A stretch of 64,000 bases of DNA. Origin: Anaerohalosphaeraceae bacterium. GTDB taxonomy: Bacteria; Planctomycetota; Phycisphaerae; Sedimentisphaerales; Anaerohalosphaeraceae. The notes beneath the pieces were generated by a model that ran no database searches, was not told the DNA's origin, and saw only the letters and a list, made by a program, of their open reading frames with translations. The position numbers and the translations under genes were made by a program. The DNA lies in NCBI GenBank assembly GCA_050309605.1, contig JBNRMN010000002.1, forward strand, positions 16,438-80,437, read 5' to 3'. This document shows positions 62-25,542 of the stretch, piece after piece (the first letter of the stretch is position 1; each line of letters begins with the position of its first letter).

Positions 62-410
62 CACAATGCCTTTCTTTACAGTTGTTCTGCCGGTACTGAT
101 GTCGTCAGACGACCGGCTCGGCTTAATCAGCCGCCGAAAATTTTGCCGGCTGAACACTAATTTTTCGTCCGGCGGCGGTGTCCGTTCGTTTGTCTGTTTG
201 GTGCGGCTTGTTTGTGTTGCCGCGATTTTCATCTTGAAAAGGTGTTTTCAGCATTAAAAACACCTTATGCCCCCACAGAAGCCTGATGTATTATAAAACA
301 TACAAAACAATTCGGCCTGTCGGGGCGTCATAAATCAAGAGTCAGTCGATGGAGTTATCGATGTTTGCGGGACACAGGTTATAGGACGCAGCGCCGATGA
401 TGTGCGGTTT

Positions 411-486
411 ATCGGGTGGCACCCTCAAGCATCGGGTGGCGTCCTCAAGCATCGGGTGGCACCCTCAAGCGCAGCTTGCGGGTGCC
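411..486. repeat. 20-bp tandem repeat x3 ending in a hairpin (REP-like)
   Basis: ATCGGGTGGC(AC/GT)CCTCAAGC at 411, 431 and 451. The last copy pairs with the following GCTTGCGGGTGCC. Confidence 0.85.
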
Positions 487-502
487 GGGACAGAGTTTGG
501 CA

Positions 503-1027
503 TCATTCTTGAGGACGCCGGATGTTGGTAAACCAGGCTCTTTGTGTGTCAGGATTATACAGGATCGTTGCGCTTAGTTCGCTAAAAGGTCGAGTAGTGG
601 CTCCGGTTTTGTCATAACGCACTTTGCATACTAGGTCGTACCGCCAGAGTAAATCATATTGTGGGTGATTAGTAATTGTTTGCGGATCGTAGGCAGGTTC
701 CAGAATAAAAGAGAAGTTCTCGTCACCATCCAACTCGGCGGGAGCATTGTTATTTAAATATTGAGGATTAACTGGAGCATTCAGAGTCCCAGACTTGTTG
801 TCCGCCAGAATCAATGCGCGGGCGTGTTCCAGCCCGCCCCAGGCGATGTAGTCGGCCTGGGTGCGCAGGGCGTAGTTGTGGCCGCCGGCCGCGGCCATGT
901 CGGCGCGGTACAGGATGCCCAGCGAGATCACCACCACCGCCATAATCATAAACAGCACCACCAGCAGGGCTGCGCCGCGGCGATTCCTGGTTTTGCGTTT
1001 TGCGTTTTGCGTTTTGCGTTTGATCAT
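503..1027 (-). CDS. PilX/GspK-like minor pilin
   Basis: Basic leader, RRG|AALLVVL hydrophobic helix without E5, and a QA..IA.GGLE motif typical of PilX-like proteins. Confidence 0.75.
   Translation of the reverse strand: MIKRKTQNAKRKTRNRRGAALLVVLFMIMAVVVISLGILYRADMAAAGGHNYALRTQADYIAWGGLEHARALILADNKSGTLNAPVNPQYLNNNAPAELDGDENFSFILEPAYDPQTITNHPQYDLLWRYDLVCKVRYDKTGATTRPFSELSATILYNPDTQRAWFTNIRRPQE
991..1018. repeat. Heptamer tandem repeat (TTTTGCG)x4 inside a prepilin leader
   Basis: Directly visible; encodes the KRKTQNAKRKT stretch on the minus strand. Confidence 0.9.
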
Positions 1028-1069
1028 TATCGCATTTCACATTTGAAATTGGATATTTGAGATTTCAGA

Positions 1070-1657
1070 TTATCTCTCGCCGCGTGGCGTGGCGGTCAGG
1101 GTATAACGTGCATCGTTTATATCGAACGTGATGGTTACGTGGTTATTTTCATACTGGATATGTACATTTTTCTGAACAGATACGGAGTTTTGTGTTGTCG
1201 CGTCTTCAATTTTATAGTCATATTCAGATGTGTTAGGCTCGGGTTTGCTGAAATCCTTTACGTAAAGAATGTTTTGTGAGGCATCTGTATAGATTTTATA
1301 TTTTCCCTCGGCGCAGACGATTTCTACGCCTTTGTTTTCGCCTTCAGGGAGTTCTTCGATACTTTCGGCGCGCATGACCAGATCGGCCAGGCGCGTGTGC
1401 AGTTGTGCCAGATAGGTGGCGGTGCGGGTCATGTTTTCGGTTTCGCGCTTGCCGCAGCTCATGGCGTCGGCCATCGTCGCCGCCGCGGCCAGCACAATCG
1501 CTGCGACCATCAGCGCCAGCAGCAGCTCGGTGAGCGTAAAGCCGCTGGATGGACGATGGACGAGGGACGAGGGACGATTGTCCTGTGGTCTATATTGTGC
1601 CGGTCTATTGTTTTTCATATCCTCTTTTTGGGATTTTTGGTTATTGCTGTGCTGCAT
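1070..1657 (-). CDS. Minor pilin/pseudopilin (PilW/GspJ-like)
   Basis: G|FTLTELLLALMVAAIVL prepilin motif; start could be 1618. Confidence 0.8.
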   Translation of the reverse strand: MQHSNNQKSQKEDMKNNRPAQYRPQDNRPSSLVHRPSSGFTLTELLLALMVAAIVLAAAATMADAMSCGKRETENMTRTATYLAQLHTRLADLVMRAESIEELPEGENKGVEIVCAEGKYKIYTDASQNILYVKDFSKPEPNTSEYDYKIEDATTQNSVSVQKNVHIQYENNHVTITFDINDARYTLTATPRGER

Positions 1658-2083
1658 TTACAGATGACCGTCGCCGATCAATGTTTTGAGTGTGATCATG
1701 GGTCTGTTGTTGTCGGAGACCTTGACTGTTAGAATCACCACATCAATGGTATCGGGCATTTGACCAACCGAATCATAAGTGATAAATAACTTTGCGCTCA
1801 AATTCGAATAAACAGGCTCAGGGTATTGTCCCAAGGGAATTATTGGGTCATACTGTCCGTTAACAGGATAATCGTTTTTGATAGCGTCGTATCCTTCGGC
1901 AATGAGCCTTTCAATGACGTCAGCGGCGAAGCGTGTGGCGATGACGCGGCGTTGGGCGTCTGTTTGGGCGGCGGCGGCGGCGGTGATGGGCAGCAGGATG
2001 CCCGCCGCGGCCATGGCCAGCAGCGCCGAGGCCATCAGGGCCTCGATCAGCGTCATGCCGGATTGTTGTTTGCGTCGTGCCAT
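1658..2083 (-). CDS. Minor pilin/pseudopilin (PilV/GspI-like)
   Basis: MARRKQQSG|MTLIEALMA prepilin motif. Confidence 0.8.
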   Translation of the reverse strand: MARRKQQSGMTLIEALMASALLAMAAAGILLPITAAAAAQTDAQRRVIATRFAADVIERLIAEGYDAIKNDYPVNGQYDPIIPLGQYPEPVYSNLSAKLFITYDSVGQMPDTIDVVILTVKVSDNNRPMITLKTLIGDGHL

Positions 2084-2100
2084 CGTTTCCCCTCTAAGGG

Positions 2101-2234
2101 AAAATTCCAAATCTTAAATTCCAAATCATAAACAAATCTGAAAATTAAAAACCGAAAACATTCAACACGTTTTGAATTTCTGATTTTTAAAATTTGACCT
2201 TGTTTAGGATTTAGTGCTTAGTGCTTGGAATTTT
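2101..2234. repeat. ~134-bp AT-rich imperfect palindrome built of heptamers (MITE-like)
   Basis: The left arm AAAATTCCAAATCTTAAATTCCAAATCATAAACAA matches the reverse complement of the right arm (AAAATTCCAAGCACTAAGCACTAAATCCTAAACAA). Confidence 0.75.
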
Positions 2235-2660
2235 CTACAGGTCTTTGTGGCGGATGCCTTTGGTTGCGCCGCCGTCGTCGGCGATGAATCGGCCGGTTTG
2301 CTGGTCATACAGCCAGTCGCCGCCGGAGACGCTGTTGCCCCCGGTGAAGGGATTGGCGGGGATGCGCTCCAGATAGGGGCCGAACTTCAGAGGGCCGTCG
2401 GCGTCGTCGGTCGTGCCTTTGAGGTTGGTTTTTTGGGTCATCTGTTCGGCGAAGGCCGCCAGACGAGGCCATTGGCCGTCGTGCTGAACGTGGTACAACG
2501 ACAGTTGTGAGCGGACCGTCTGGAGGTTTTCACATAACGTGTTGAGCCGCTCGTCGGTTGCGGCGCGACTGAATTTGGGCAGCGTCATCACCGAGACGAC
2601 GCACAGCACCGCTGCGATGATGATGACTTCAGTCTTTTTGAATGTGTTGTTCGTCCTCAT
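2235..2660 (-). CDS. GspG/pilin-like paralog with a degenerate cleavage motif
   Basis: Shares LQT.RSQ.SLY..QH and GPY...IP.NP with 2809-3324; N-terminus reads TFKKTEV instead of GFTLVE. Confidence 0.75.
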   Translation of the reverse strand: MRTNNTFKKTEVIIIAAVLCVVSVMTLPKFSRAATDERLNTLCENLQTVRSQLSLYHVQHDGQWPRLAAFAEQMTQKTNLKGTTDDADGPLKFGPYLERIPANPFTGGNSVSGGDWLYDQQTGRFIADDGGATKGIRHKDL

Positions 2661-2742
2661 TGCTTTTCCTTGAATACGTGAATTTTAAATGAGCTTCACA
2701 CGAAGCGTTTTTACTTTCGGCCTGAATGGTCAATCGTCAAAG

Positions 2743-2783
2743 AAAAAAGCCGACCGGCCGCGTGAGTGCGGACCGGCCGGCTT
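2743..2783 (-). terminator. Intrinsic terminator after the major pilin gene
   Basis: Minus strand AAGCCGGCCGG..CCGGTCGGCTTTTTT, a GC stem followed by a U-run. Confidence 0.75.
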
Positions 2784-2808
2784 ATTTTGACATTTCAGCT
2801 TTTAATTA

Positions 2809-3324
2809 TCAATCAGTAGTACCACCAGTAGTACCAAGTGCCGCACCGTTTTCAACAAGAGTGTCCTTTGCAGTCTTATTGGTTACGTCGCTGACGGCCA
2901 GATAGATGTTGCCTGTGCCTTCTACATAGACCCAGCCGACACCAGCCCCATCTGCAGCAGCAACGGAGGAGGAGTTGTTCCAGGGATTTCTGGGAATCGA
3001 CTGAACGTAAGGTCCATAAATAATGTTATTTTCAGCATCTTTTGAATCACTTGTGTTTCCAGCGGCATCTGAATATTGTTCGAGCCGATCTTTAAATGTT
3101 GCCTCGTCAAATGTTCCATGACAAGGAGGATTGTCATTGTGCTGGATTTTGTACAGCGAAATCTGCGACCGCAGCGTCTGCAAGCTGCTCATCGAGCTGT
3201 TGAGCTTGGCTTCGGTGCTGGCCTCGCTGAACTGAGGGATGACGATGGCCGCCAGGATACCCAGGATGACCACCACGATCAGAATTTCAACCAGTGTGAA
3301 ACCTTTTTGTGTTCGTGTTCTCAT
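2809..3324 (-). CDS. Major pilin/pseudopilin (GspG/PilA-like)
   Basis: KG|FTLVEILIVVVILGILAAIVIP canonical N-methylation motif, AAAGGA RBS, own terminator. Confidence 0.9.
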   Translation of the reverse strand: MRTRTQKGFTLVEILIVVVILGILAAIVIPQFSEASTEAKLNSSMSSLQTLRSQISLYKIQHNDNPPCHGTFDEATFKDRLEQYSDAAGNTSDSKDAENNIIYGPYVQSIPRNPWNNSSSVAAADGAGVGWVYVEGTGNIYLAVSDVTNKTAKDTLVENGAALGTTGGTTD

Positions 3325-3759
3325 TGTTCTGTTCCTTTCGTTTTGTGTTTCTGTTTTCGGTATCGTTTTTTGTTAGTTCGTAGATTGTCCTCTGACCTCT
3401 GCCTACTGTCCTTTGTCCTCTGACGTCTGGTTTCCAGGCCGATATTCGATTGTCAAAGATCGTTGCGGCGTTTTGATGTGTGCCGCGTTGTGTTTCTACA
3501 AAAAATGTAAGAAACAAAATGGTCGAGGGGTAATGATTCGGGTCATTTTTTTAAGATTTTTTCAAAGATAAAGTCCGCCCGATAACGACGTGGTTTGTTT
3601 GTCTTTACGGCAATGCGGACGCAGCACATGTGTAGGGTCCGGCGGAGACGGCAACAGCGCGGCAGCGCGAGCTGCCCGATAGGGGGGCGAATGTGTGAGG
3701 CGTTTTTAAGGCGTGCTGGTATCCGGGGGTTTTCGCGGTTCGGGTTGTGTTGTGGGTGA

Positions 3760-3873
3760 TTATCCGGGGGCTTGCGCCCCTCGGCTTTTGTTGTGGGCGA
3801 TTATCCGGGGGCTTGCGCCCCTCGGCTTTTGTTGTGGGGGATTATCCGGGGGCTTGCGCCCCTCGGCTTTTGT
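3760..3873. repeat. 41-bp tandem repeat x3 with internal palindrome (REP/BIME-like)
   Basis: TTATCCGGGGGCTTGCGCCCCTCGGCTTTTGTT at 3760, 3801 and 3842; degenerate copy near 3721. Confidence 0.9.
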
Positions 3874-3926
3874 TCGATTTTGACGGGGGTTGTGTATGGT
3901 GTGCGGGGCGGCTATAATGACCCCCT

Positions 3927-5321
3927 ATGGCGAAATTACCAGACAATTCGTTGTTTTCGCGGTCGGAACGGGCGACGCTGGCGGGTTTTGCTCCGCTGGC
4001 GGTGCGGATGCGTCCGGAACGGCTGGATGCGTTTGTCGGCCAGGCGCATTTTGTCGGGCCGGGCAAGCTGCTGCGTCGGATGCTCGAGGCCGGTCAGGTG
4101 ACCAGCCTGATTTTTTACGGCCCGCCCGGCGTGGGCAAGACGACGCTGGCGCGGATTGTGGCCCATTCGATTCAGGCACAGTTTCATTATCTCAGTGCAC
4201 CGGCGGCCTCGGTCAAGGATGTGCGCGAGATTGCCGCGGCGGCCAAAGACCGGCTGATTACGTCCAAACGTCGGACACTGCTTTTCATCGATGAAATCCA
4301 TCGATTTAACAGGGCACAGCAGGATGTGCTGCTGGATGATGTGGAAAACGGGATATTGACGCTGATCGGGGCGACGACGGAAAATCCGTTTTTTTCGGTC
4401 AATTCGCCGCTGATCAGCCGCAGCACGGTGTTCAGTTTTGAGCCGCTTGGCCGAGAGGCGATTTTGGAATTGCTGAATCGCGCTCTGACCGACGCCGAGC
4501 GGGGGCTGGGCAAGATGCAGGTGGCTGCCGAGCCGGAGGCGCTGGATTTTTTGGCGACGATCTGCGACGGCGACGCCCGCAAGGCCCTGACGGCACTGGA
4601 AGTGGCGGTGTTGTCGCAGGCACAGGCCGAAGGGTCCGAAAAAGTACGGCTGACGCTCGATATTGCTAAAGAATCCGTTCAGAAAAAGTCGATTCAATAT
4701 GACGGGACCGGCGATACGCACTACGATCTGGCCAGTGCGCTGCAAAAGTCGATGCGCGGGTCGGATCCGGACGCGACGGTGTATTGGCTGGCGCGGATGA
4801 TCGTCGGGGGTGAGGATCTGCGGTTTATCGCCCGCCGGATAATGGTGTGTGCGGCCGAGGATGTGGGTAACGCCGATCCGATGGCGACGATATTGGCGGC
4901 GTCGGCGATGCAGATTGCCGAGTTTATCGGTTTTCCGGAGGCCCAGCTTCCGCTGGCGCAGGCGGCGATTTATATTGCCTGTGCGCCGAAATCCAACGCC
5001 TGTGCCAATGCGATTTGGCAGGCGTGTTCGGATGTGCAGTCGGGGCGGACGATTCCGGTGCCGCCGCACCTGCGGGATGCGCATTACGCCGGGGCCAAAC
5101 AGCTCGGCCACGGCGCCGGTTATCAGTATCCGCACAAAAGCCCGGTCGGCTATGTTGAACAGGACTATCTCGGTCAGAAACTCGATAAGCCGTACTATCA
5201 GCCGAAAGCAATCGGACGTGAAAAAATCATTGCCGATTATTTACAAAAACTGAAAAATCATGTACAACAGATGGGCGAAAACCGCTCTGAACCCGTAGAA
5301 AAGAGACCTGATGACAGATAA
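3927..5321 (+). CDS. rarA: Replication-associated recombination protein A (AAA+ ATPase)
   Basis: PLA.RMRP, GPPGVGKT Walker A, FIDEIHRFN, KSMRGSDPDA, EDVGNADP, VPPHLRDAHY. Confidence 0.95.
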   Translation: MAKLPDNSLFSRSERATLAGFAPLAVRMRPERLDAFVGQAHFVGPGKLLRRMLEAGQVTSLIFYGPPGVGKTTLARIVAHSIQAQFHYLSAPAASVKDVREIAAAAKDRLITSKRRTLLFIDEIHRFNRAQQDVLLDDVENGILTLIGATTENPFFSVNSPLISRSTVFSFEPLGREAILELLNRALTDAERGLGKMQVAAEPEALDFLATICDGDARKALTALEVAVLSQAQAEGSEKVRLTLDIAKESVQKKSIQYDGTGDTHYDLASALQKSMRGSDPDATVYWLARMIVGGEDLRFIARRIMVCAAEDVGNADPMATILAASAMQIAEFIGFPEAQLPLAQAAIYIACAPKSNACANAIWQACSDVQSGRTIPVPPHLRDAHYAGAKQLGHGAGYQYPHKSPVGYVEQDYLGQKLDKPYYQPKAIGREKIIADYLQKLKNHVQQMGENRSEPVEKRPDDR

Positions 5322-8369: not shown

Positions 8370-11258
8370 ATGATATTTCCGAGAACCGGCATTATTGCAT
8401 CCTTTTTTCTGATTTTTTCGATGGGTGCATTGGGGGATGTGCAATGGCTGCGTTATCGAACCAGTGAGGATGTGGGCCAGGAGGTGGGCGCCTCGGTGAA
8501 CCGGTATTATCGCAGTTTTGAGTCGCAGCGTCCGGAGCACGTGCGGTGTCCGGAATTCAAATCCGACAGTCCCTTGTTTATTAAATGGAACACCCCGATG
8601 GACGGGCAGGGTTTTCGGTGGATCGCGTTGGATCGTTCGACGCCGTATGGACAATATGATCTGTTGTATATCGATTCAAACGGCGACGGGCATCTGGATG
8701 ACGAGAAGCCGTATCAGGGGCGGCGAAGCGATCAGTATCGTATGGCCTTTCATCCGTTTCCTGTCTATCTGACCGGCGAGGACGGGCCGATTACCTATCA
8801 TCTGGCGTGCCAATTCTACAGCTATGATGAGCGCAGTCGATATTTGATGATGTCTTCGGGCGGTTATTATGAAGGGACGGTGTTGATCGGCGGCGAACCG
8901 GTTGGGTGTGTTCTGGTGGATACCAACGGCAACGGGACGTTTGACGATACGGCTGAGGACTTTAACGCCGACCGGATTTTGCTGGGTGAAGGACAAAATC
9001 GGCGGGAGTATTTTGTGGGTCGCTATCTGGATTATGAAGGGACGTTGTATCGGCTTCAGATTGCACGCGACGGGGCGTTTGTGTCTCTTGCGGCTGCGCC
9101 CGACGTATCGTTTGGGGTCGTGCAGGTTCCCGAAGGTTTGACGAAATTCTCGGCCGGGGGTGTTAATGGAATGTATCACATGTCGCCGGAAAACGGGCAC
9201 GTGCGCCTGCCGGAAGGGACGTATCGGGTGTATCAATGGGAGTTGGTTCGTCAGGACAAGGGGCAGGACTGGACCTTGCGGGGAAGCAATTTTCCGCGTC
9301 AGCAGAGTTTTACGGTCAGCGCCGATACGCCGGCGAGGGTGGCTGTCGGCGAGCCGGTATTTTCGCGGCTGTCGGTTTCCGAACGACAGGGAATCTATTC
9401 GATCAATCAGGAACTTCGGGGCAAGATGAACGAGCAGGTCAGTGTGCTGCGAAACGGTCGGCAGCCGCCGGCGCCGAAGGTGCATATTCGCAGCCAAACG
9501 GGCGCGTATGACCGGACGTTTTCGCTGGAGTATGGGTGAGGCGGTACCTGTTCGCTCTCGTGGCGAGAGCCGAGGAATATTGAGCGTCCGTATGTTATAA
9601 CGCCGCTGGTCGAGGGGCCGTTTGATATACGGCAGATGCGCTATGTTTTTAAGCCGCTGCATCGTTCGGTACCGGTCGTCGGGCCGTGGATTGCCGAGGT
9701 TGCCGCCGATGAGGCGCTGCGCGTGGTGGTTGACGGTACGGGGCTGGTTGACCGTAACGGCGACCGTTTGCCGGAGCATTTGACGCAAACCGAGACGCAG
9801 TGGATTGTATCGCAAGAGGAGGTGGGAGAAGGGCTTGTCTTTGATTTCGGCCAAGCGGTCGAGTTGGAAACGCTTCAAATCTGGAATTACAATGAGCCGG
9901 GCTATACATCGCGCGGCGTCGCGCAGGCGGATGTATCGGTCTGGACGTCTGAAGGCGACTGGAAGACGGTTTTGCGCGGCGCGTCGCTGCAAGAAGCCGA
10001 AGGGACAGACCAGTATGATGAGCCGACCCTGCTGAGGCTTGTCCCGACGCGGGCCGAGAAGGTGCGGCTGAGCAATCTTAAGCCGTTTGCCGATGAGGGG
10101 TTTGTCGGTTTGTCGGCGATCCGGTTTTATGAGAAGGCCACGTTGGCGGCCTGCAATCCGCAGCCGCCGGGAGGGGCATCGCTGCCGTTCAGTTCTCAGG
10201 CGACGTTGTTCTGGACGCCGGGTAAAGAGGCGGCTGCGTATGATGTGTACGCCGGAATCGACGGTCAAGAGCCGGCGTTTTTGGGTCGCATTGCGGAATC
10301 TCAGGTCAAACTGGTCGGGCTGGTCGGCGAACGAACATATCGGTGGCGCATTGATGCGGTACAAACGAATGGTACCGTTACGCAAGGGCCGCTGTGGTCG
10401 TTTTCGGTTGAGCCGGGCCGCTGTGTGGCGCATTGGCCGTTTGATGAACACGAAGGCCAAACGGCTGCCGATTCGCTCGGTCAGGCGGCCGGTGTGTTGA
10501 GAGGTGAACCGGCGTGGCTGATTGACGGCGGACGGATTGACGGGGCCATCGAGCTGGACGGTCAGCGTGATTTTGTCGAAACGCCGGCGCTGCATTTGAA
10601 CACTGATACGCTGACGATGACTGTCTGGCTGCGGGCTGATCCGCCGCCGAATCAACTGACCGGCGTGATGTTCTGCCGCACGCCTTCGACGGTGGCGGGA
10701 ATTCACTTGAGCGGTACGAATCTGCGGTATCACTGGAATGATCTTCCGGAAAGTTATAATTGGGACAGCGGACTGAGTCTTCCGACGGATGGCAGGTGGG
10801 TGTTTGCCGCCCTGACGGTTACGCCGGAGTCGGCCAGGCTGTACCTGCATCATGACGGTGAGCTGAAGACAGCGGAAAATCGTCTCGTTCATTCCGTTCA
10901 GCCCTTTGACGGGCCGTTGACATTGGGATGTGACGGCGGGATCAATGACCGCAATTTCAAAGGTCGTATGGATGATGCGCGGGTGTATAATTATGCGCTG
11001 ACTGCTGAACAGATTCTTGCACTGGCCGAGGGACGTGAGCCGGCGGATTACGCTTCAGATGCGGCGCCGTCGCTGGCGCTGGCCGGTGCGGAATTGATCC
11101 AGCGCGACGCGGATTTGAAGGCGATCGCCGAGGCTCGGCAGCGCGAGCGACAAGCGGCTCCGCCGGCCGAGGTGCGCCGACGCAATATCCTGCCGGTGCT
11201 GGTGATTGTGGCGTTGATTGCCGCCGCGGCGGTGGTCTTGGGCAGGAAGTCCGCATAA
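8370..11258 (+). CDS. Putative exported selenoprotein (962 aa, Sec390; UxxxC motif, discoidin-like and LamG domains, C-terminal TM)
   Basis: ORFs 8370-9539 and 9636-11258 are in the same frame, separated only by TGA at 9537-9539. Read-through gives EYG-U-GGTCSLSWREP, and a SECIS-like hairpin follows. Signal peptide; FKGRMDDARVYNYALT LamG motif. Confidence 0.8.
9554..9570 (+). promoter_or_regulatory. Candidate bacterial SECIS hairpin
   Basis: GCTCTCG-TGG-CGAGAGC, perfect 7-bp stem; loop at +22..+24 after the TGA. Confidence 0.8.
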
Positions 11259-11382
11259 ACCGCAGAATAAGCAGTGAAACGTCAGATTTCACAAACTAAA
11301 CAGAGAACGTTCTATTATGCGGCACGATCCTTCCGGCCGTATTGAAGGGGGATCGTGCCCGTGCTGCAAGGGAGGTTTCAGG

Positions 11383-13821
11383 ATGCGTCAAGTCATAAGC
11401 AGAAACGGGTGGACGTGGGTTATGGTTGTGTCGGCGGTACTCGGTGCGGCTGAGGCGAAAACGCTCAAAGGCACGGTCACCGGTCCTGACGGCGCACCGG
11501 TGGACGGCGCGGCGGTGAGTGTCTATGCGGCCCAGCTTAAGATTGAATCGCTTGCTTTTGAGGTTCAGCCGGTCGGTCAGACGACGACGTGTTCGTCGGG
11601 ACTGTTTTCGGTGGAGACGGATGTTCAGATGCTGTCCAGCGAGGGAGGCTGGCTGTTTTTTGCGGAAAAGCCGGGCCTGTCAATCGGTTTTTCTTTGCTG
11701 CAAGACTTCTCGGAGGACAGCACGTCGCTTCAACTGACCGCGCCGCAGACATTGGCCGGACGGATTGAGGATATTCACGGTAATGCGGTTGCCGGGGCCG
11801 GGGTGCGTCTGCTGGTTTTATCGGTTCCGGGTGAGCGTGAGTGCTATACGCTGGGGCTTGAGCCGATCCCGTTTTTTGCTGCGGAAACGGATGCGCAGGG
11901 GCGATTTGAATTCGCGAATCTGCCGGAAAACTGTACGGCTGAACTCTTGGCCAAAAAGGCGGGACTGGCGACCTTTCATACGCTGACGTCCAACATCAAT
12001 CCGCAAACGGGGCTGAGTTTTTCGGTCGGGCAGGAAGATATTGTCCTGACCTTATCCGAGGCGTGTCGAATCAGCGGTATAGTGACCGACCAGGACAATC
12101 AGCCGGTGGGTCATGTGCAGATTGTGGCGATTGAAGCGGACCATCCGCAGATCGGGATTTTTACCCGGAATCTAACACGCGCCGAGGCCGACGGGACATT
12201 CAGCTTCGGCGGCCTGTCGGCCGGGTCATATCGACTCAGTGTGATTGATGCGGACTGGATGTCCGAGCCGGTTACCGTGGAGGTCAAGACGGAGGTGGGT
12301 GTGCCGCTGAAGGTCGTCAAGGGCAGCCTGCTGACAGTGACGGTGGTGGACGGCGTTTCCAATCAGCCGGTTGGATCGGCTCAAGTCAATGTGAGTCCGC
12401 AGGATGAACGCAGCAGTTTCTCGTTCGGCAGGGGCACGACCGATCCGGAGGGCAAAGTGCAAAGTCGCGTTTTGCCGGGGACGTATAATGTGTACGTCAG
12501 TGCGCCCGGATATCGCAGCAGCCGCAGTGTCGCGGCGGTCGTGGAAGACGGCAAGACCAATGAGATCACGATTATGCTGGGCGCAACGGCCCGCATTGCC
12601 GGAACGGTTACCGATTCCGACGGGCGGCCCGTTGCAGGGGCACAAGTCTTTGTGCTCCCCTTTTCGGGTAATGTGCGGGACGCCATACAGACAACCGACG
12701 AAAAGGGGCACTTTACCCTTGGGTGGGATCCGGAGCAGATCAGTTGGGTACAGGGTGAATTCTATCTTGCCGCGATTGACAAAAGCAGCAACCGTGCGGT
12801 GATTGAGCCGATTGACGCGGACACCACGGACATCCAGCTTACCCTTCAGCCCGGTCTGACGATCACCGGCAAAGTGACCGGCCCGGACGGCGAATCTCTG
12901 GCCGGGGCGGGGGTGAATGTGCAGTTTCGCGGCTCAAACTGGTCTTCGACGCTTCAGGGATACACCGCCCAAACCGACCGGGACGGGATGTATCGTATTG
13001 CCGCCATACCGCCGCAGCAGCGGTATTACTTATTCATCAGTGGGCCGACCGGTTATGGCACCGGGTCGGTTAATCTGGAGTTACCGACGGACGGCGATGT
13101 GGTTACCGCATCCGATACGGTGCTGAAATTGGCCAATCTGTCGGTATCCGGCAAGGTGGTTGATGAGGACGGCAATCCGCTGGAGGGGGTGAATCTGCAT
13201 TGTTACGGCTCCGGCCAGCCCAGCGCCCAGGCGCGAACCGGCACGGATGGGACATTTGTGTTTGATGCGGTCTGCCAAGGCGATCTGTCCATTCAGGCCA
13301 ATTATCAAAAAGACGGCGAGTATATGTATTCCAATGTCCGAACCGAAGGCGGAGCGCAGGAGGTCACGATCGTCCTGGGCCCGCAAAGCTCCGGCGGCGG
13401 CTATGTGCCGCGACGGCCGGCCCCGCTGGTCGGCAAGCTGCTGCCGGATTTGTCGGGGTACGGCATTGAGCTTGAGAGGCAGGCCGGGCCGGTGCTGGTA
13501 TGCGTCTGGGACTGGCGGCAGCGGCCGAGCCGTTATATGGTGCGGCAACTGGCCGCGCGGGCCGGTGCGCTGGCCGAGCGGTCGGTACAGGTCGTGCTGC
13601 TCAATGGCGAATCGACGGAACGTGAGCCGCTCGATGCGTGGCTGGCTGATTTTGACATTCCGTTCGTCTGCGGCGTTATCGCCATCGACCCCGATAATTC
13701 TCGATTTAATCTCGGCGTCCAGGCGATGCCGTGGCTGATTTTAACCGATGGTCAGCGCAAGGTCATTGCTGAAGGGTTTGCGCTGTCCGAATTGACTGAT
13801 AAGCTGGGCGGACTGCAATAA
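11383..13821 (+). CDS. Exported protein with carboxypeptidase-regulatory-like repeats and a C-terminal thioredoxin-like fold
   Basis: Signal peptide; repeated G.V.D.DG.P..GA.V ... TD..G.F units; C-terminal LPDL..PVLVCVW..QRPS..AMPWLILTD. Confidence 0.8.
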   Translation: MRQVISRNGWTWVMVVSAVLGAAEAKTLKGTVTGPDGAPVDGAAVSVYAAQLKIESLAFEVQPVGQTTTCSSGLFSVETDVQMLSSEGGWLFFAEKPGLSIGFSLLQDFSEDSTSLQLTAPQTLAGRIEDIHGNAVAGAGVRLLVLSVPGERECYTLGLEPIPFFAAETDAQGRFEFANLPENCTAELLAKKAGLATFHTLTSNINPQTGLSFSVGQEDIVLTLSEACRISGIVTDQDNQPVGHVQIVAIEADHPQIGIFTRNLTRAEADGTFSFGGLSAGSYRLSVIDADWMSEPVTVEVKTEVGVPLKVVKGSLLTVTVVDGVSNQPVGSAQVNVSPQDERSSFSFGRGTTDPEGKVQSRVLPGTYNVYVSAPGYRSSRSVAAVVEDGKTNEITIMLGATARIAGTVTDSDGRPVAGAQVFVLPFSGNVRDAIQTTDEKGHFTLGWDPEQISWVQGEFYLAAIDKSSNRAVIEPIDADTTDIQLTLQPGLTITGKVTGPDGESLAGAGVNVQFRGSNWSSTLQGYTAQTDRDGMYRIAAIPPQQRYYLFISGPTGYGTGSVNLELPTDGDVVTASDTVLKLANLSVSGKVVDEDGNPLEGVNLHCYGSGQPSAQARTGTDGTFVFDAVCQGDLSIQANYQKDGEYMYSNVRTEGGAQEVTIVLGPQSSGGGYVPRRPAPLVGKLLPDLSGYGIELERQAGPVLVCVWDWRQRPSRYMVRQLAARAGALAERSVQVVLLNGESTEREPLDAWLADFDIPFVCGVIAIDPDNSRFNLGVQAMPWLILTDGQRKVIAEGFALSELTDKLGGLQ

Positions 13822-13883
13822 GACGACAGCACAGCAGGGGTGTTTTATTCGGCTGTTGATGTGATTATGTTCAGGGAGTTGAG

Positions 13884-15038
13884 ATGAGACAATGGGTTGT
13901 TTTATGGGTCGCTTTCGCGGCGGCCGGGGCGATGGCGCTGACGGTTTCGGAGCAGACGCTTGATCTGTTTGGTACGTCCGAGCCGGAGGATCCGAATGCC
14001 GTGGTTCTCGCTGATCCGCCCTACACCGTCAAGGTGTCGCGCACGGGCAAAGTGCTGAATGTGGCGATTGAGACCGCGTCGCGTGAGCAGGCGGAATTGC
14101 TGTTCGGCGCGCATTATGAACAGTCGCCGAGACTGTCGATTTATAAGGGCGATTTGCTGCTGGCATCGGGGCAGTTCGCCTTTGGGTGAGGCGGCGTCTG
14201 TGCGTACTCGTGGCGAGTACCGATGTATGCTTATGGCACATTCAGAATCGAGACGGAAGTGCCGACCGGCGAAGGCGAACCGATCCGCGTCGAGCCGACG
14301 ACATATTATTTCAATCCGCTGTATCATGCGTCGGGGTTTGTCTATTTCGTTCCGGTTGCGGCGGCGTTTTTGTTCCTGAAAGAAAACCGGCGACCGAAGG
14401 CGTTTTTGATTCTGGCGCCAATGCTGCTGGTGATGGGGATGTGGAGAGGGTTTTCCGGAGTGATGCATTTTCCTGAAGAGGCGGTCAGCATGTTAAATTC
14501 AGTGGTTATGGCCTTGCTGGCGGGCCTTTCCGTTGTCTGGCTTCTGGGTGAGCGGATCGGCCATCGCCATCGGTTGGCAACGACTTTTCTGGCGGGCGGT
14601 ATTATGCTGGGGTGCTGTGCCCTGATGCTGGTAGAAATCTTTTCCTCGGACTATGTGTTTCAAATCGCATTTTTCGGTGTGATCAGTGCGGCGGTTATCC
14701 TGTCGGGCTTACTTGTCGGCGGTTTCCTGAGCCGGAAGCGATTTGGCCCGGTGCGTTTTTTGCTATGGTTCGGTGTGGGCATTTTATCGGCGACTTTTGT
14801 GCTGTTTTTTGTTTATTATGCGATTTTGACATTTTCCTATTTCAGTGCAGATTTGTTCTGGATGTTGTTGGGCGTGATGCTGACTTATGCCGCAATCTAT
14901 TGGGTAGGCGTCTTGCCGTTTCTGGTGCTGTTTTTCGTCAATGACTTTTGGCGGCAGCGGTTTACGGCGGTCATGGGATTGGGCACTGTAGCCGTATCCG
15001 AGACGGAAGCTCACGAGGCGTTTACGTCTGACTTCTGA
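13884..15038 (+). CDS. Putative membrane selenoprotein (384 aa, Sec102; exported UxxxC domain plus multi-TM domain)
   Basis: ORFs 13884-14189 and 14223-15038 are in frame, separated only by TGA at 14187-14189. Read-through gives FAFG-U-GGVCAYSWRVP, and a SECIS-like hairpin follows. Confidence 0.8.
14204..14220 (+). promoter_or_regulatory. Candidate bacterial SECIS hairpin
   Basis: GTACTCG-TGG-CGAGTAC, perfect 7-bp stem; loop at +22..+24 after the TGA. Confidence 0.8.
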
Positions 15039-15886
15039 TCGCCCAGTTCCGTCGGTTCGTCCAGCAGGGTGGCCGGCTTCAGTGCGCCGGGGCCGCATTT
15101 TGTGCATTCCAGACAGCGGATGCAGTGGTCGGCGTTGGGGGTCTTATCGGGCTGGACGCCGTAGCGGCACAGGGTTCGACAGCGGCCGCATTGGGTGCAT
15201 TGGTGTTCTTCCAGGTTCAGTGTAAACAGAGAAAACCGATTGAAAAAGCCGAAAATCGCACCCAGCGGGCACAGAATTCGACACCACGGGCGGATGGTAA
15301 AAAAGATGGCGGCGACAAAGACGACGATGATGGTGATTTTGAGGGTGTTGGGCCAGGGGATTACGTCGCCGGCGACGGCGGCGGAAACCACATCGGGCAG
15401 GGCCTTTTCCAGCCCGCCGGCCGGGCAGATACGGCAGATAAACAGCGGGTGGCCTTCGCCGAAAAAGTAGGGGACGGCCAGGACTGTCCCGATCAGTACG
15501 ACATAGCGAAAATGCCCCATCCAGCGGGGGATTTTGAAACGCGGCGCGGGGACCTTGGCCGCGACATCCTGAAGCAGGCCGAACGGACACATCCAGCCGC
15601 ACACCAGCGAGCCGAGCATCACGCCGAACGCGATCAGCAGTCCCACGGCAAAATACGGAAACAGGTGCAGCGCACTGAATTGGGCAATGACGCCGATGGG
15701 GCAGCCGAACAAGGCCAGCGGACAGGCATAGCAATGGAACACCGGTCCGCACACGGTGTGCATCCGCAACCCGAACGGATCGAGCCAGACCAGCAAAAAA
15801 CCCGTCTGTACCCACAGCCGATGCGGCAGGAGTTTTTTGAAAAACCGCGACAGCGGCGATGACGATGAATTGACCGTGGACACCAC
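15011..15886 (-). CDS. Membrane 4Fe-4S binding protein (NapH/YccM-like polyferredoxin)
   Basis: CGWMCPFG and WCRILCPLG CxxxCP motifs; CTQCGRCRTLC and CIRCLECTKC ferredoxin motifs; TM helices; AAGGAGG RBS (start may be the second GTG, 15883). Confidence 0.9.
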   Translation of the reverse strand: MVSTVNSSSSPLSRFFKKLLPHRLWVQTGFLLVWLDPFGLRMHTVCGPVFHCYACPLALFGCPIGVIAQFSALHLFPYFAVGLLIAFGVMLGSLVCGWMCPFGLLQDVAAKVPAPRFKIPRWMGHFRYVVLIGTVLAVPYFFGEGHPLFICRICPAGGLEKALPDVVSAAVAGDVIPWPNTLKITIIVVFVAAIFFTIRPWCRILCPLGAIFGFFNRFSLFTLNLEEHQCTQCGRCRTLCRYGVQPDKTPNADHCIRCLECTKCGPGALKPATLLDEPTELGDQKSDVNAS

Positions 15887-15890
15887 AGCC
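15872..15890 (-). promoter_or_regulatory. Candidate bacterial SECIS hairpin overlapping the start of the next gene
   Basis: GGCTGTGG-TGT-CCACGGTC, 8-bp stem with two G-U pairs; loop at +22..+24 after the TGA. Confidence 0.65.
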
Positions 15891-15894
15891 TCCT

Positions 15895-16140
15895 TTAACT
15901 GCCTCAGGTCGGGCAGGCTTCGGGGGGCTTGCCCGTGTAGGTTAACTGCAATCGACCGTCGTCGGTACGCTCCAGCCCGCCGATGCTGACTTCCTTCATC
16001 AGCCGCGTTTCGGGCGTGGCCAACCCTTTGTCGTTGTGTTCCGAAAAGACCGGCTGCGTGTGAAACTTCAGCCCGAAGGCCATCAGGCCGGCGCCGATAA
16101 ACAGCAGCACAAATACGATTTTGATCTTGAAGGACTCCAT
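15895..16140 (-). CDS. Small membrane-anchored protein with a putative C-terminal CxxU motif (81 aa with read-through)
   Basis: N-terminal TM; ends TGC CCG ACC TGA GGC AGT TAA = C-P-T-U-G-S-stop. Confidence 0.7.
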
Positions 16141-16286: not shown

Positions 16287-17297
16287 TTATGTTGTCGGTT
16301 TGATTTCCAGCGGATGGGCGTTTTGATATTGTTCCTGCATTCGACTGGTGGTGATATGCGTATAAATCTGGGTTGTCGATAACGATTGGTGTCCCAGCAG
16401 TTCCTGAACGCTTCGCAGGTCGGCACCGTTGTTGAGCATATGGGTCGCGAAGCTGTGCCGCAGCGTGTGCGGGCTGATGTTCGGGTCCAGACCCGCCTCG
16501 ATGAGGTATTTGTCCATTTTTCGGCGGACGCTGCGGGCACTCATCCGTTTGCCGTGCTTGTTGGCAAACAGCACTTTACTGTCAAAGCCCGGATCATTGG
16601 CCAGACGGCGGCTGCGAAACTCCAGATAATGTTGAATGCTCTGCAGCGCTGTCAGACCAATCGGGCAAATCCGTTCTTTTTTGCCTTTGCCGCGGACGTG
16701 AATCACTTCGCCGAGGAAATCCACATCTTCCATATTCAGGGCCACCAGTTCGCTGACCCGCATCCCCGTGCTGTAGAGTACTTCCATCATCGCTCGGTCG
16801 CGGGCACCCAGCCATGTGGTGGCCGGCGGTGTGTTCAGCAGCCGCTGAACCTGCTCGTATTCAAGAAACTTGGGCAGTTTTTTATCTTGTTTGGGTGTTT
16901 TGATATTGGTGGCCGGATTGCTGGACACATAATTGCGCTTGACGAGAAATTTGTAAAAGCTGCGCACCGTGGCCAGTTTGCGTGCGGTGGTGGATTTGGA
17001 ATAGGCGTGGGAGTTCAATTCCGCCAGAAAACGGCGTATCGTATTGACGTCCGCAGCCTGCAGCAGGGTATCGATCTGGGTTTGTGCCTGGGTCTGTGTT
17101 TGTGTCGCGACCGAACCGTTCTCGGCGGCCCAGGGATTTTGTCCGTTGTCGTCGGGGCCGTGCGCGTCGGCGTGGGCGGCCAGAAAGGCGCTGTACTGCT
17201 CCAGGTCAGCCTCATAACACTTGGCGGTATGCTCGGAAAAATGTTTTTCAAATTTCAGATAATTGACAAAATCCTGGATAATCGCCGAGTTGTCCAT
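16287..17297 (-). CDS. xerC: Tyrosine recombinase XerC
   Basis: RD.A..E.LYSTGMRVSEL, GKGKKER, SPHTLRHSFATH.L..GADLR.VQELLGH.SLSTTQIYTH. Confidence 0.88.
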   Translation of the reverse strand: MDNSAIIQDFVNYLKFEKHFSEHTAKCYEADLEQYSAFLAAHADAHGPDDNGQNPWAAENGSVATQTQTQAQTQIDTLLQAADVNTIRRFLAELNSHAYSKSTTARKLATVRSFYKFLVKRNYVSSNPATNIKTPKQDKKLPKFLEYEQVQRLLNTPPATTWLGARDRAMMEVLYSTGMRVSELVALNMEDVDFLGEVIHVRGKGKKERICPIGLTALQSIQHYLEFRSRRLANDPGFDSKVLFANKHGKRMSARSVRRKMDKYLIEAGLDPNISPHTLRHSFATHMLNNGADLRSVQELLGHQSLSTTQIYTHITTSRMQEQYQNAHPLEIKPTT

Positions 17298-23434: not shown

Positions 23435-23632
23435 ATGGCAAAAAACGTAAATCTTCGTGATCGGGACGTAATGGCCTTAATCAATGCCAGGGCAGAGGCC
23501 GAAGGGCGGACGGCCCAAAATGCCGCCAGTCAGACGATTCGCGAGGCGCTTATGCCGATTTACGGCCCGAAACGTCGTTCATTCAAACAGCGAATCATTG
23601 AAAAGTCAAACGGAAATGGCTCAATGGATTGA
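23435..23632 (+). CDS. Small DNA-binding protein (Arc/RHH-like)
   Basis: NVNLR...ALI.ARA.AEGRT.......IREAL pattern; occupies the Ner/Cro position. Confidence 0.6.
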   Translation: MAKNVNLRDRDVMALINARAEAEGRTAQNAASQTIREALMPIYGPKRRSFKQRIIEKSNGNGSMD

Positions 23633-25542
23633 CATTTCGACAGCCGCTGCGCGGCTGGGGGTTACGGAGCGGGCTGTCCGTAAGCGTTGTCTGGTCGGTG
23701 ATTTGCCCGGCGCTGAGAAGCGTAATGGGATCTGGCGGATACCTGTAACCGCCGACGCGCGGCTGGCAGGGCGTCCTGCCGTCGACGTGCGGGTTGATGC
23801 TGATGACCTGGCAAGAATTCCAAAACCAAAGTTAGACGAGGCGATTCGGCGGGCAGGCGTTGTCGCGGCTTTTGAGAGGTTCTCGCGTGAACACGTCCGG
23901 GCCGGCGGGCTGCGAACTGAGGCCTTCGAAATATTCGCGTATCAAAATAATCTGGCTGTCGGCACGCTGCGGCGATGGGTTTCACGGCACAAGCAACACG
24001 GGGTTTTGGGCCTGGTGGATTGTCGCGGCGGGTCGCGAAATAGCGAGACTATCAGTCCGGAGGCCTGGGAGTTTTTCAAGAGTCTCTATCTCGATCCGCG
24101 CCAGCCGTCAATCCGGCAGTGCCTGCGGATGACCGTTCACCATAATAAGAGGGAGAAGTTGGGCTGGACAATACCATCGTACGGCGCGCTTTGCCGATAC
24201 ATAGACAAGTATTTGCCCTTGCCGGTTCGGGTGCTGCATCGTGAGGGGCAGGCCGCCTATGAGGCCAAGTGCGCGCCTTATATTCAAGTCGATCTTTCGG
24301 AAGTCGAGCCGGGCAGCGTCTGGGTCGGCGATCACCACCAGTTTAATGTGTTGATTCAACACATGGGCAAATGGGTGCGGCCCTGGCTGACGGCCTGGAT
24401 GGATGCGCGCAGCCGCGCGCTGGTGGGCTGGCAGGTCTGTTTGCAGCCGAACCAGACGACGATCCTGACGTCGTTTCGGGATGCGGCGAAAAAATATGGC
24501 CCACCGGATGGGGTTAAGATCGATAATGGCCGCGACTACGATGCACGATTGTTTACCGGCACGACCAAAAAACGCCGGAAGGCCCTGAGTAAGGGTTATC
24601 TTGACGAAGATACGGTGTCCGGCCTCTACGGTCTTTTGGGTGTCGAAGTTTCTTTTGCCATTCCTTACCATCCTCAAAGCAAGTCCATCGAACGGTTCTT
24701 TGATACCGTCGATCAACAGTTTTGCAAGTTTGTTCCGACGTATTGCGGCAAAGACACCAAGCGGAAGCCGGAAGCGCTTAATGATTATCTCAAGTCGTCG
24801 TCGGCGGTTGAGGCGGCTTATACGCTTGAGACCTTCTCGAAGGCCTTTGCCGATTACGCGGCTGTTTATAATACCCGGCCGCACTCATCGCTGGCCGGCC
24901 AGACGCCGCTGGAAGTGCTCGAATCGCGCGAGTCGAAGCGCGTCGTTTTGGATGATGTGCTGGATCTGTTGTGCCGTGTCTGGATAGACGCAAAAGTCAC
25001 CAAGAACGGTGTACGCATAAATGGACTTTATTTTGGGCAATACGACCCCCCACATCATGGCGCTGCAAGGCAAAGCTGTGCGTGTTAGCTACGATCCGAA
25101 CGACGCGGGGGTCATTTTCATTTACAACGAAGATTGGAAGTTTGTTGCGCGGGCCGAGAGCAATCGGCTGGTCGCCTACGGGCAGCCCGGGGTCAGCGAC
25201 GGCTCTGTCCGTGCGGCCATGCGGCAAAAGGCCCGCGCGGCAAAACAGCTTCGTCAGCAGCGGGACGCGGCGCGTACTCGCGCGATGGACGTGGCGGCCC
25301 TGGCGATCGAGGCCCAGGCCGCCGAGACCCGGCCGGCGCCGGCGGCCAAGCCGCCGAGGATTCGGGCGGTCAAAACCGTTTTGGACGGTCAGCTCGACGC
25401 GCATAAAGTGGCTGCTGGGCCGTCGCCGTCGCGAGAGTCGTTCTGTCTGGAGTGGGACATCGAACCCAAAGGGCTAAAACCGCCGCCTGTTATTGATCTG
25501 GGGCTGGACGACGATTTCTGGGAGGATGCCGATGTTGGGTGA
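23616..25542 (+). pseudogene. MuA-like DDE transposase split by a frameshift in a C6 run (25046-25051)
   Basis: N-terminal HTH; WVGDH, D..SR..VGW, IDNGRDY, K.IERFF core. The C-terminal G..V.VSYDPND...I.I domain continues in another frame. Confidence 0.85.

Follow-up and report, generated by a model that had tools for sequence, protein, structure and literature searches.

The 64,000-nucleotide stretch of DNA analysed here, hereafter the window, belongs to the genome of an Anaerohalosphaeraceae bacterium of the Planctomycetota (assembly GCA_050309605.1, contig JBNRMN010000002.1, positions 16,438 to 80,437 of the forward strand) and carries three short RNA hairpins, each of them placed just downstream of an in-frame UGA codon. 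Two of these hairpins are very probably bacterial selenocysteine insertion sequences (bSECIS) lying in the coding sequence of a large, unnamed family of exported or membrane selenoproteins, and two other small genes of the genome share the same hairpin. In the form encountered here, the element consists of a 7-8-bp stem and a U-G-G/U triloop, with 19-23 nt separating the A of the in-frame UGA from the start of the loop. The UGA is conserved and in frame, the hairpin covaries, the genome possesses the machinery for selenocysteine (Sec, U), and the family both co-occurs with and is linked to selA; we infer that Sec is inserted at the UGA codons and that SelB binds the hairpins. Mechanistically, SelB carrying Sec-tRNA(Sec) would bind the mRNA hairpin and would deliver Sec to the UGA in competition with release factor 2.

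In-frame UGA codons and hairpins in the window

Two of the sites lie in genes P0001 and P0002, members of the family termed Ig-like in this text, and the third in a small gene, CPT-U, on the opposite strand. The features concerned are as follows (ORF, open reading frame).

8370..11258, plus strand: gene P0001, 962 amino acids with TGA 9537 read through; ORFs 8370-9539 and 9636-11258 share one frame
9537..9539, plus strand: in-frame UGA, putatively read as Sec, site 1; orthologues retain the TGA
9554..9570, plus strand: candidate SECIS hairpin 1, GCUCUCG-UGG-CGAGAGC, which codes for (S)LSWRE(P)
13884..15038, plus strand: gene P0002, 384 amino acids with TGA 14187 read through; ORFs 13884-14189 and 14223-15038 are in frame
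14187..14189, plus strand: in-frame UGA, putatively read as Sec, site 2, on the evidence of translation and homologues
14204..14220, plus strand: candidate SECIS hairpin 2, GUACUCG-UGG-CGAGUAC, which codes for (A)YSWRV(P)
15895..16140, minus strand: small membrane-anchored CPT-U protein ending in ...PPEACPT-U-GS-stop (CxxU motif), with 10 homologues
15904..15906, minus strand: UGA putatively read as Sec, site 3, three codons ahead of the TAA stop
15872..15890, minus strand: candidate SECIS hairpin 3, GGCUGUGG-UGU-CCACGGUC, centroid energy -11.2 kcal/mol, also predicted by RNAalifold

At site 1 the arms occupy 9554-9560 (GCTCTCG) and 9564-9570 (CGAGAGC) on either side of the loop TGG (9561-9563), while at site 2 they occupy 14204-14210 (GTACTCG) and 14214-14220 (CGAGTAC) on either side of the loop TGG (14211-14213); both stems begin 14 nt past the TGA and comprise 7 bp with no mismatch. 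A first-pass annotation had held that the two stems pair perfectly while differing at two positions on each arm, and that the changes alter the encoded amino acids on both arms, and both statements are borne out. Compensatory swaps are found at stem positions 2 (C-G to U-A) and 3 (U-A to A-U), and translation with TGA as U yields ...EYG-U-GGTCSLSWREP... at site 1 and ...AFG-U-GGVCAYSWRVP... at site 2, the pairs L..E and Y..V arising because the differing stem bases fall in those codons. The peptide common to both sites is [YF]G-U-GG-x-C-x-[YL]-SWR-[VE]-P.

The third site on which that annotation based a consensus (TGA 15906-15904, minus strand) lies beyond the range assigned to it. UGA-to-loop spacing is 21 nt at all three sites, the loop being UGG at sites 1 and 2 and UGU at site 3; the centroid hairpin at site 1 has an energy of -10.5 kcal/mol, and the bare hairpin at site 2 one of -8.3 kcal/mol. 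In the proposed consensus, TGA-GGC-N17-G-TG(G/T)-C, neither GGC nor N17 is strict, as GGC follows the TGA at 60 of 85 homologous Ig-like sites, other codons being seen at the rest, and the loop in CPT-U homologues starts anywhere from 22 to 26 nt after the T of the TGA. Taken literally and with at most one mismatch, the nucleotide consensus occurs 4 times in the window against 2.5 expected, which is not significant; the DNA pattern GGN-TGA-GGN-GGN-NNN-TGY occurs twice against 0.03 expected, a count reached in 0 of 100 shuffles. When the literal consensus is combined with a stem of at least 6 bp and sought in the whole genome, six occurrences are recovered, four of which follow TGA and none TAA or TAG, so that the motif is not equally frequent after the other stop codons. 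Five sites were accepted in the genome as a whole; all have GGC directly 3' of the TGA, a 3-nt loop and a 7-8-bp stem.

Conservation of the interrupted reading frame

Around the Sec site, P0001 and P0002 share 26% identity over 139 residues (E 1e-6). Searches with P0002 found matches in 12 of 41 related genomes, at identities as low as 28%; a TGA is present in 18 of 20 places, and the other two matches miss the Sec position. Overall, homologues of P0002 at 23-91% identity read through one TGA. A domain profile was built from an alignment of approximately 115 residues around Sec (A1) and run on 401 genomes sampled from the phylum. This profile, which spans the TGA in P0001 (profile positions 3-115, E 6e-32), matches 36 of the genomes with up to nine copies per genome, and the 84 places matched contain exactly one TGA in 67 cases, two TGA in one, none in 15 and four TAG in one. 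Among 97 distinct sites covering the Sec column (four further matches were left out, the column not being covered), 85 have TGA, 3 have TGC and 9 have other codons. An in-frame UGA with conserved sequence on both sides is therefore found in 85 of 97 Ig-like sites, and likewise in 10 of 10 CPT-U homologues and in 7 of 7 homologues of a third protein, encoded next to selB and described below. A scan of genome contigs with a Cys-containing peptide pattern returned three loci only.

The profile matched 1007 proteins at E values up to 0.001 in a library of 1.84 billion representative proteins. Among the best 150 of these, 81 of 152 domain matches break off at profile position 72, where the protein itself ends and Sec would be the very next residue, indicating that genes of this family are routinely cut at the UGA. 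The same truncation is what would be seen if the TGAs were ordinary stops, separating two genes or marking a broken one, with the hairpin serving translational coupling, mRNA stability or attenuation; such a role is also consistent with the overlap between hairpin 3 and the ribosome-binding site and start of the next gene, and with 60-nt folds that are no stabler than shuffles. We nevertheless regard this explanation as highly improbable. Across the phylum, in the 67 of 84 places noted above, a conserved open frame flanks one TGA on either side; a single predicted beta-sandwich domain (predicted local distance difference test score, pLDDT, 82) spans the codon; there is no start codon immediately after it, the next ATG lying 33 codons downstream at site 1 and 12 codons downstream at site 2; the stop is always TGA, and never TAA or TAG, at 85 sites; and the family co-occurs with selA.

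In the best 150 database proteins, 69 matches cover the Sec column; of 68 residues there, 13 are C, 10 are G, 9 are L, 7 are S, and R and W account for 4 each, with other residues besides. These non-Sec residues could be true substitutions following loss of the Sec trait, or they could reflect TGA translated by gene callers under other genetic codes. Database proteins with a non-Sec residue (within P0004-P0153) often keep an intact ...YSWRVP motif. The metagenomic proteins P0004, P0005, P0020 and P0023 are 2562-4001 residues long with 9-17 tandem copies of the domain; in P0005, Ala occupies the Sec column in three copies that extend over it, and their motif is quite different.

Covariation of the hairpin arms and codon choice

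A test of covariation on homologs, as the first-pass annotation had advised, was strongly positive. It was carried out on the 85-row alignment of TGA sites (A2), using a named 8-pair helix and 500 shuffles. Of the cells of this helix, 81.2% are paired versus 64.8% in shuffles, and the covariation score is 0.424 versus 0.142, neither value being reached in any of the 500 shuffles; sliding the partner by 1-3 columns gives a score of at most 0.174. Changes on both sides of a pair occur in 92 cells, with all eight pairs showing such changes, and RNAalifold, run independently, predicts the five inner pairs. At 78 of 85 TGA sites, versus 3 of 12 non-TGA members, six or more consecutive pairs enclose a loop whose centre lies 25 nt past the T of the TGA. 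In a fixed register, 17 distinct arm pairs are fully paired, and the stems seen among homologues include GUACUCG/CGAGUAC, GCUCUCG/CGAGAGC, GUAUUCG/CGAAUAC and GUGCUCG/CGAGCAC, as well as GCACCCG/CGGGUGC, GUGCGUU/AACGCAC and GUGCAUU/AAUGCAC; the loop columns read TGG in 71 of the 85 aligned sites. A covariance model built from the same alignment (R1) scores the genome's three Ig-like members at 50-52 bits, the next match being at 20.7 bits.

Its position within the reading frame means that the element dictates codons: UCG-UGG-CGA is Ser-Trp-Arg, and the flanking codons must be complementary, giving among others UAC/GUA (Tyr..Val), CUC/GAG (Leu..Glu) and UAU/AUA (Tyr..Ile). Codon choice at the stem was compared with usage in 1515 long ORFs of this genome. 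Serine is encoded by TCG in 53 of 61 cases (28% in the genome), arginine by CGA in 53 of 62 (14.6%), valine by GTA in 30 of 42 (8.1%), tyrosine by TAC in 38 of 46 (35%) and leucine by CTC in 11 of 11 (13%).

These codon data bear directly on the suggestion that complementarity is a by-product of co-variation between amino acids, for instance the packing of Tyr with Val versus that of Leu with Glu, and not of RNA pairing. In its favour, the motif's Trp and Pro are conserved in members without TGA too, and few stem types dominate, three arm pairs accounting for 40 of the 85 rows. Against this stand the skew of synonymous codons, five- to ninefold toward the pairing codon; at least 17 fully paired arm combinations that encode unrelated residues (CVWNA, HPWRV, CSWRA); the loss of pairing in non-TGA members; and the appearance of the same hairpin in non-coding sequence after the CPT-U gene. 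Together these make an origin in amino acid co-variation extremely improbable, and pairing of the RNA itself the preferred explanation.

Several observations weigh against the interpretation of the hairpins as SECIS elements of a selenoprotein family and should be set beside the evidence given above. Firstly, structure alone is not diagnostic: a triloop with a stem of at least 7 bp at the same distance is equally common genome-wide after TGG, TGC, TAG and TGA (approximately 16 per 10,000), 60-nt windows at the three sites fold no better than shuffles (z = 0.06, 0.41, -0.13), and over 39-nt windows the minimum free energy averages -11.6 kcal/mol in TGA members and -9.5 kcal/mol in the others, a weak separation (p = 0.015). 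Secondly, all seven positions are paired in the fixed register in only 54 of 85 rows, and since the 85 sites are related to one another, paralogues and close orthologues being among them, both the cell counts and the shuffle tests make independent events look more numerous than they are. Thirdly, the retention of Trp and Pro of the SWRxP motif where there is no TGA indicates that part of this motif is constrained at the protein level. Additionally, Cys homologues at the Sec position, though present, are few (3 of 97 DNA sites have TGC, and Cys makes up 13 of the 68 residues in database proteins), which is unusual for selenoprotein families, and Rfam (release 15) yields no match in the window at gathering thresholds and none at the three sites at E values up to 10.

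Selenocysteine machinery and its linkage to the family

The genome (3.40 Mb, 54.5% G+C, 99.7% complete) encodes tRNA-Sec, SelA, SelB and SelD. The gene for tRNA-Sec is found on contig C64, approximately 600 nt after selD, while selA and selB are on contig C34; TGA serves as an ordinary stop in 554 of the 1515 long ORFs. A third Ig-like member of approximately 86 residues (C34:83213-83494, TGA at C34:83344, minus strand) is situated divergently upstream of selA. Ten of 41 relatives combine selA with the family; one carries selA alone, another (76% complete) the family alone, and both are missing from the remainder. In seven genomes selA lies within approximately 1-20 kb of family genes.

A stretch of contig C34 (G000:C34:83213-87399; loci L001, L002 and L113) forms what may be called a 'selenium locus', in which this Ig-like member, selA-selB and a protein with the sequence LQPG-U-GNP stand together. 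The arrangement is found in at least two relatives (G002:C29, G012:C1).

Searches of the genome found no molybdopterin oxidoreductase and hence no gene for formate dehydrogenase, and selD is free of in-frame stops. The first-pass annotation had expected a genome scan with a covariance model of the three sites to recover selD, fdhA, prx and hdrA; for these reasons such a recovery cannot work in this genome, where the motif instead marks five genes from three unnamed families. A covariance model built from the Ig-like family recovers members of that family only, the two other families being missed.

The composition of this pathway also speaks to the possibility that one of the standard amino acids (Trp, Cys, Gly or Arg) is incorporated at the UGA and that the hairpin stimulates this read-through independently of SelB. 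In its favour, 47 of the 68 residues at the Sec column in database proteins are G, L, S, R, W or C, that is, single-base neighbours of TGA or readings under an alternative code. We consider this very unlikely, given that the genome maintains a full Sec pathway with no other obvious use, that sel genes are physically linked to the family, that the hairpin conforms to the published bSECIS model discussed below, and that a conserved nearby Cys (U-x3-C, C-x-x-U) suits Sec redox motifs. Under the preferred reading, that UGA specifies Sec, the genes described here may be the reason why the Sec machinery has been kept, given the failure to find a formate dehydrogenase and the uninterrupted frame of selD.

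Two further small families with the same hairpin

The CPT-U protein and the selB-adjacent protein are unrelated small membrane proteins that share the same type of hairpin. In the 41 relatives searched, 10 of 10 CPT-U homologues end in C-[PA]-T-TGA-NNN-NNN-stop, the second stop being TAA, TAG or TGA, and the range of loop starts given above corresponds to spacings of 19-23 nt. RNAalifold predicts eight pairs for this hairpin, three of which show compensatory changes. The hairpin is situated beyond the CPT-U stop, in a segment shared with the AGGAGG and the GTG start of the Fer4_5 gene that follows. The C-terminus (...ACPT-U-GS) resembles the CPxCG 'knuckle' of rubredoxin-like domains (PF21349, E 0.043, below the cut-off), a resemblance that offers metal binding as a possible lead.

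The fifth site (G000:C34:87223), obtained by genome scan, is in an 86-residue membrane protein encoded right after selB, with the sequence ...LQPG-U-GNPFGVLG.... Its hairpin, GGAGUGCU-UGG-AGCACUCC, again has a UGG loop, at a spacing of 20 nt. The TGA is kept in all seven credible homologues, and compensatory changes occur in five of seven predicted pairs. A family scan of this protein, made against Pfam, gave weak sub-threshold matches only.

When a hairpin-anchored scan of the genome was ranked by coding score, the five accepted sites fell within the top eleven, and the scan gave no further convincing candidate. One other site (G000:C96:35749, plus strand) has a well-scoring coding frame ending in ...GEVVFG-TGA-EGGHI-stop and, 24 nt past the TGA, an 8-bp hairpin with the loop GGC; this may represent either an additional Sec site at a C-terminus or a normal stop codon with a terminator behind it. 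De novo genome-wide selenoproteome scans based on codon usage, longest-ORF dominance or a dicodon model were too noisy and were set aside.

Architecture of the Ig-like proteins and database searches

P0001 begins with a signal-like hydrophobic N-terminal segment, carries the Sec domain near residue 390, followed by a weak F5/8-type-C match and Laminin_G_3, and closes with a hydrophobic C-terminal anchor. In P0002, AlphaFold2 predicts a signal-like helix, the beta-sandwich Sec domain and then approximately eight membrane helices. The domain itself is a predicted beta-sandwich of approximately 115 amino acids (pLDDT 82.4), for which structure searches gave generic fold matches only (Ig-like, macroglobulin and filamin); the best Foldseek E value is 3.5e-3 and the best VIA-align Z is 8.9, in the range that the tool rates as common. 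SoxY and CopC are among the weak fold matches. A sequence search of the PDB matched no chain, and a structure search with the membrane part of P0002 gave nothing.

Neither Pfam nor NCBIfam has a family over P0001 residues 300-440, P0002 or the CPT-U protein. Of 25 database representatives of the domain, 20 are without any Pfam family, and the domain usually forms the C-terminal 110 or so residues of proteins of approximately 450; it is also C-terminal in two BlaR1-type M56 proteins and one Ser/Thr kinase, and giant proteins hold up to 17 copies. A word-indexed search of longer proteins returned one match, a protein of Anaerohalosphaera lusitana; it is the sole named relative, and that name is 'hypothetical protein'. 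With a natural Cys-form homologue as query, the closest clusters in the Atlas consist of fragments 393-394 residues long that are uncharacterised and come mainly from Planctomycetota and Verrucomicrobiota.

Since members carry signal-peptide-like or membrane segments, the U-x3-C site is probably located outside the cytoplasm. There it would most likely constitute a selenol/thiol redox centre or a chalcogen- or metal-binding one.

Neighbouring features

P0001, a CarboxypepD_reg-repeat protein and P0002 on the plus strand, together with the CPT-U and Fer4_5 genes on the minus strand, make up a conserved cluster in the window. In relatives, the CPT-U gene and P0001- or P0002-like genes are found on common contigs, and the Fer4_5 gene adjoins the CxxU gene there too. 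The two remaining members of the cluster are as follows.

11317..13821, plus strand: intervening gene encoding 834 amino acids with seven CarboxypepD_reg-like repeats (Pfam)
15011..15886, minus strand: Fer4_5 (4Fe-4S binding) gene downstream of the CPT-U gene (PF12801, E 4.5e-13)

The C-terminal 140 or so amino acids of the 11317-13821 protein have no family match; a thioredoxin-like assignment of this C-terminus was dropped, having no Pfam support. A 738-codon open frame lies antisense to P0001 (8676-10892, minus strand), with nothing seen to mark it as a gene; long antisense frames of this kind upset simple filters based on ORF length.

A tyrosine recombinase gene (Phage_integrase; 16287-17297, minus strand) is directly beside the selenoprotein cluster, and a Mu-type transposase with a TniB/AAA_22-like partner (23484-25088 and 25493-26653, both plus strand) lies 6 kb further on. 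The cluster may thus be located beside or within mobile DNA. Elsewhere in the genome, contig C13 has a CRISPR-array-like region (G000:C13:~180-5100) in which a unit with TTTCAATCCACGCCCCCGTGATGGGGGCGAC recurs at regular intervals.

Implications

A broader reading, which we put forward tentatively and hold to be somewhat short of an even chance, is that a widespread and hitherto undescribed family of exported Ig-like U-x3-C selenoproteins is the main user of Sec in these anaerobes, organised around a 'selenium island' and served by one shared triloop SECIS. The family would then number more than 1000 clusters at 50% identity, nearly always with Sec and not Cys, and mostly cut at the UGA. The island would bring it together with selA, selB, the CxxU membrane protein, the 4Fe-4S membrane protein and the small selB-adjacent selenoprotein, in an extracytoplasmic pathway of selenol-based redox chemistry or of chalcogen or metal handling, and a single lineage-typical triloop SECIS would serve all selenoproteins of the island.

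With respect to annotation, searches for Sec/Cys pairs as well as deep-Sep would miss this family, because its genes are cut at the UGA and Cys homologues are few; the deep-Sep authors themselves acknowledge this limitation in their article (PMC12013277). For many genomes and metagenome bins of Planctomycetota, correct annotation would alter the selenoproteome that is predicted, and it would point to selenium chemistry outside the cell. In addition, it is rare to see so plainly in nature how the structure of an RNA can determine a protein's sequence: here Tyr goes with Val, Leu goes with Glu, and Ser-Trp-Arg is frozen.

Comparison with known systems

In E. coli fdhF and fdnG, the SECIS element is positioned in the coding region just after the UGA, a minimal upper hairpin at a fixed distance from that codon suffices, and the G/U of the apical loop is recognised by SelB; elements of the fdhF type combine a larger loop with a bulged U in the upper stem beneath it. 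The elements in P0001 and P0002 are likewise in the coding region right after the UGA. Unlike those of E. coli, their stems are uninterrupted with no bulged U and their loop is shorter (3 nt), and the sequences are not similar.

Haft and Gwadz (bioRxiv 10.1101/2022.07.06.499078) describe eight families in which annotated proteins end at the aligned position before a TGA and the frame then resumes; these are extracytoplasmic or membrane proteins found in conserved neighbourhoods of anaerobes. The families reported here share this truncation signature and this extracytoplasmic or membrane type. Those of Haft and Gwadz differ in being MerB-like proteins and parts of ABC transporters, and none of them matched P0001, P0002 or CPT-U in NCBIfam. 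No description of the present protein families was found in the abstracts and matched passages of the 2026 review (PMC13188914), of the deep-Sep paper (PMC12013277), of the Planctomycetes genome paper (PMC4807772), of Haft and Gwadz and of the MccSep preprint, although supplementary tables could list them; in Pfam, NCBIfam and the literature so covered, these families are without a name.

MccSep of Geobacter (bioRxiv 10.1101/2025.11.18.688581) is, according to that preprint, a periplasmic multihaem selenoprotein in which an Ig-like beta-sandwich domain bears the Sec; annotation had divided its gene in two at the UGA, and a SECIS-like hairpin follows within 30 nt. P0001 and P0002 resemble it in being probably exported, in carrying the putative Sec on what is here a predicted Ig-like beta-sandwich, in the splitting of the gene at the UGA and in the hairpin close to that codon; unlike MccSep as described there, they have no CxxCH haem motifs, and their fold matches are generic only.

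The bSECISearch model, as summarised in the legend to Fig. 2 of PMC13188914, places a stem-loop directly downstream of the Sec-UGA, with a loop of 3-9 nt and a stem of 4-16 bp. One of the first two loop nucleotides is a G, with G or U usually next to it; the loop lies 16-37 nt from the UGA, and the minimum free energy is at most -7.5 kcal/mol. The present hairpins have a 3-nt loop on a 7-8-bp stem, with G at loop position 2 and G or U after it; they lie at spacings of 19-23 nt, and their energies range from -8.3 to -11.2 kcal/mol. Because they agree with the published model in all four respects, the RNA element is very probably a bacterial SECIS of known type. Relative to that model they belong at the small end, with a triloop and one uninterrupted stem of 7-8 bp, and they differ from it in having a near-fixed sequence (UCG-UGG-CGA) within one protein family, where the element doubles as the codons for Ser-Trp-Arg.

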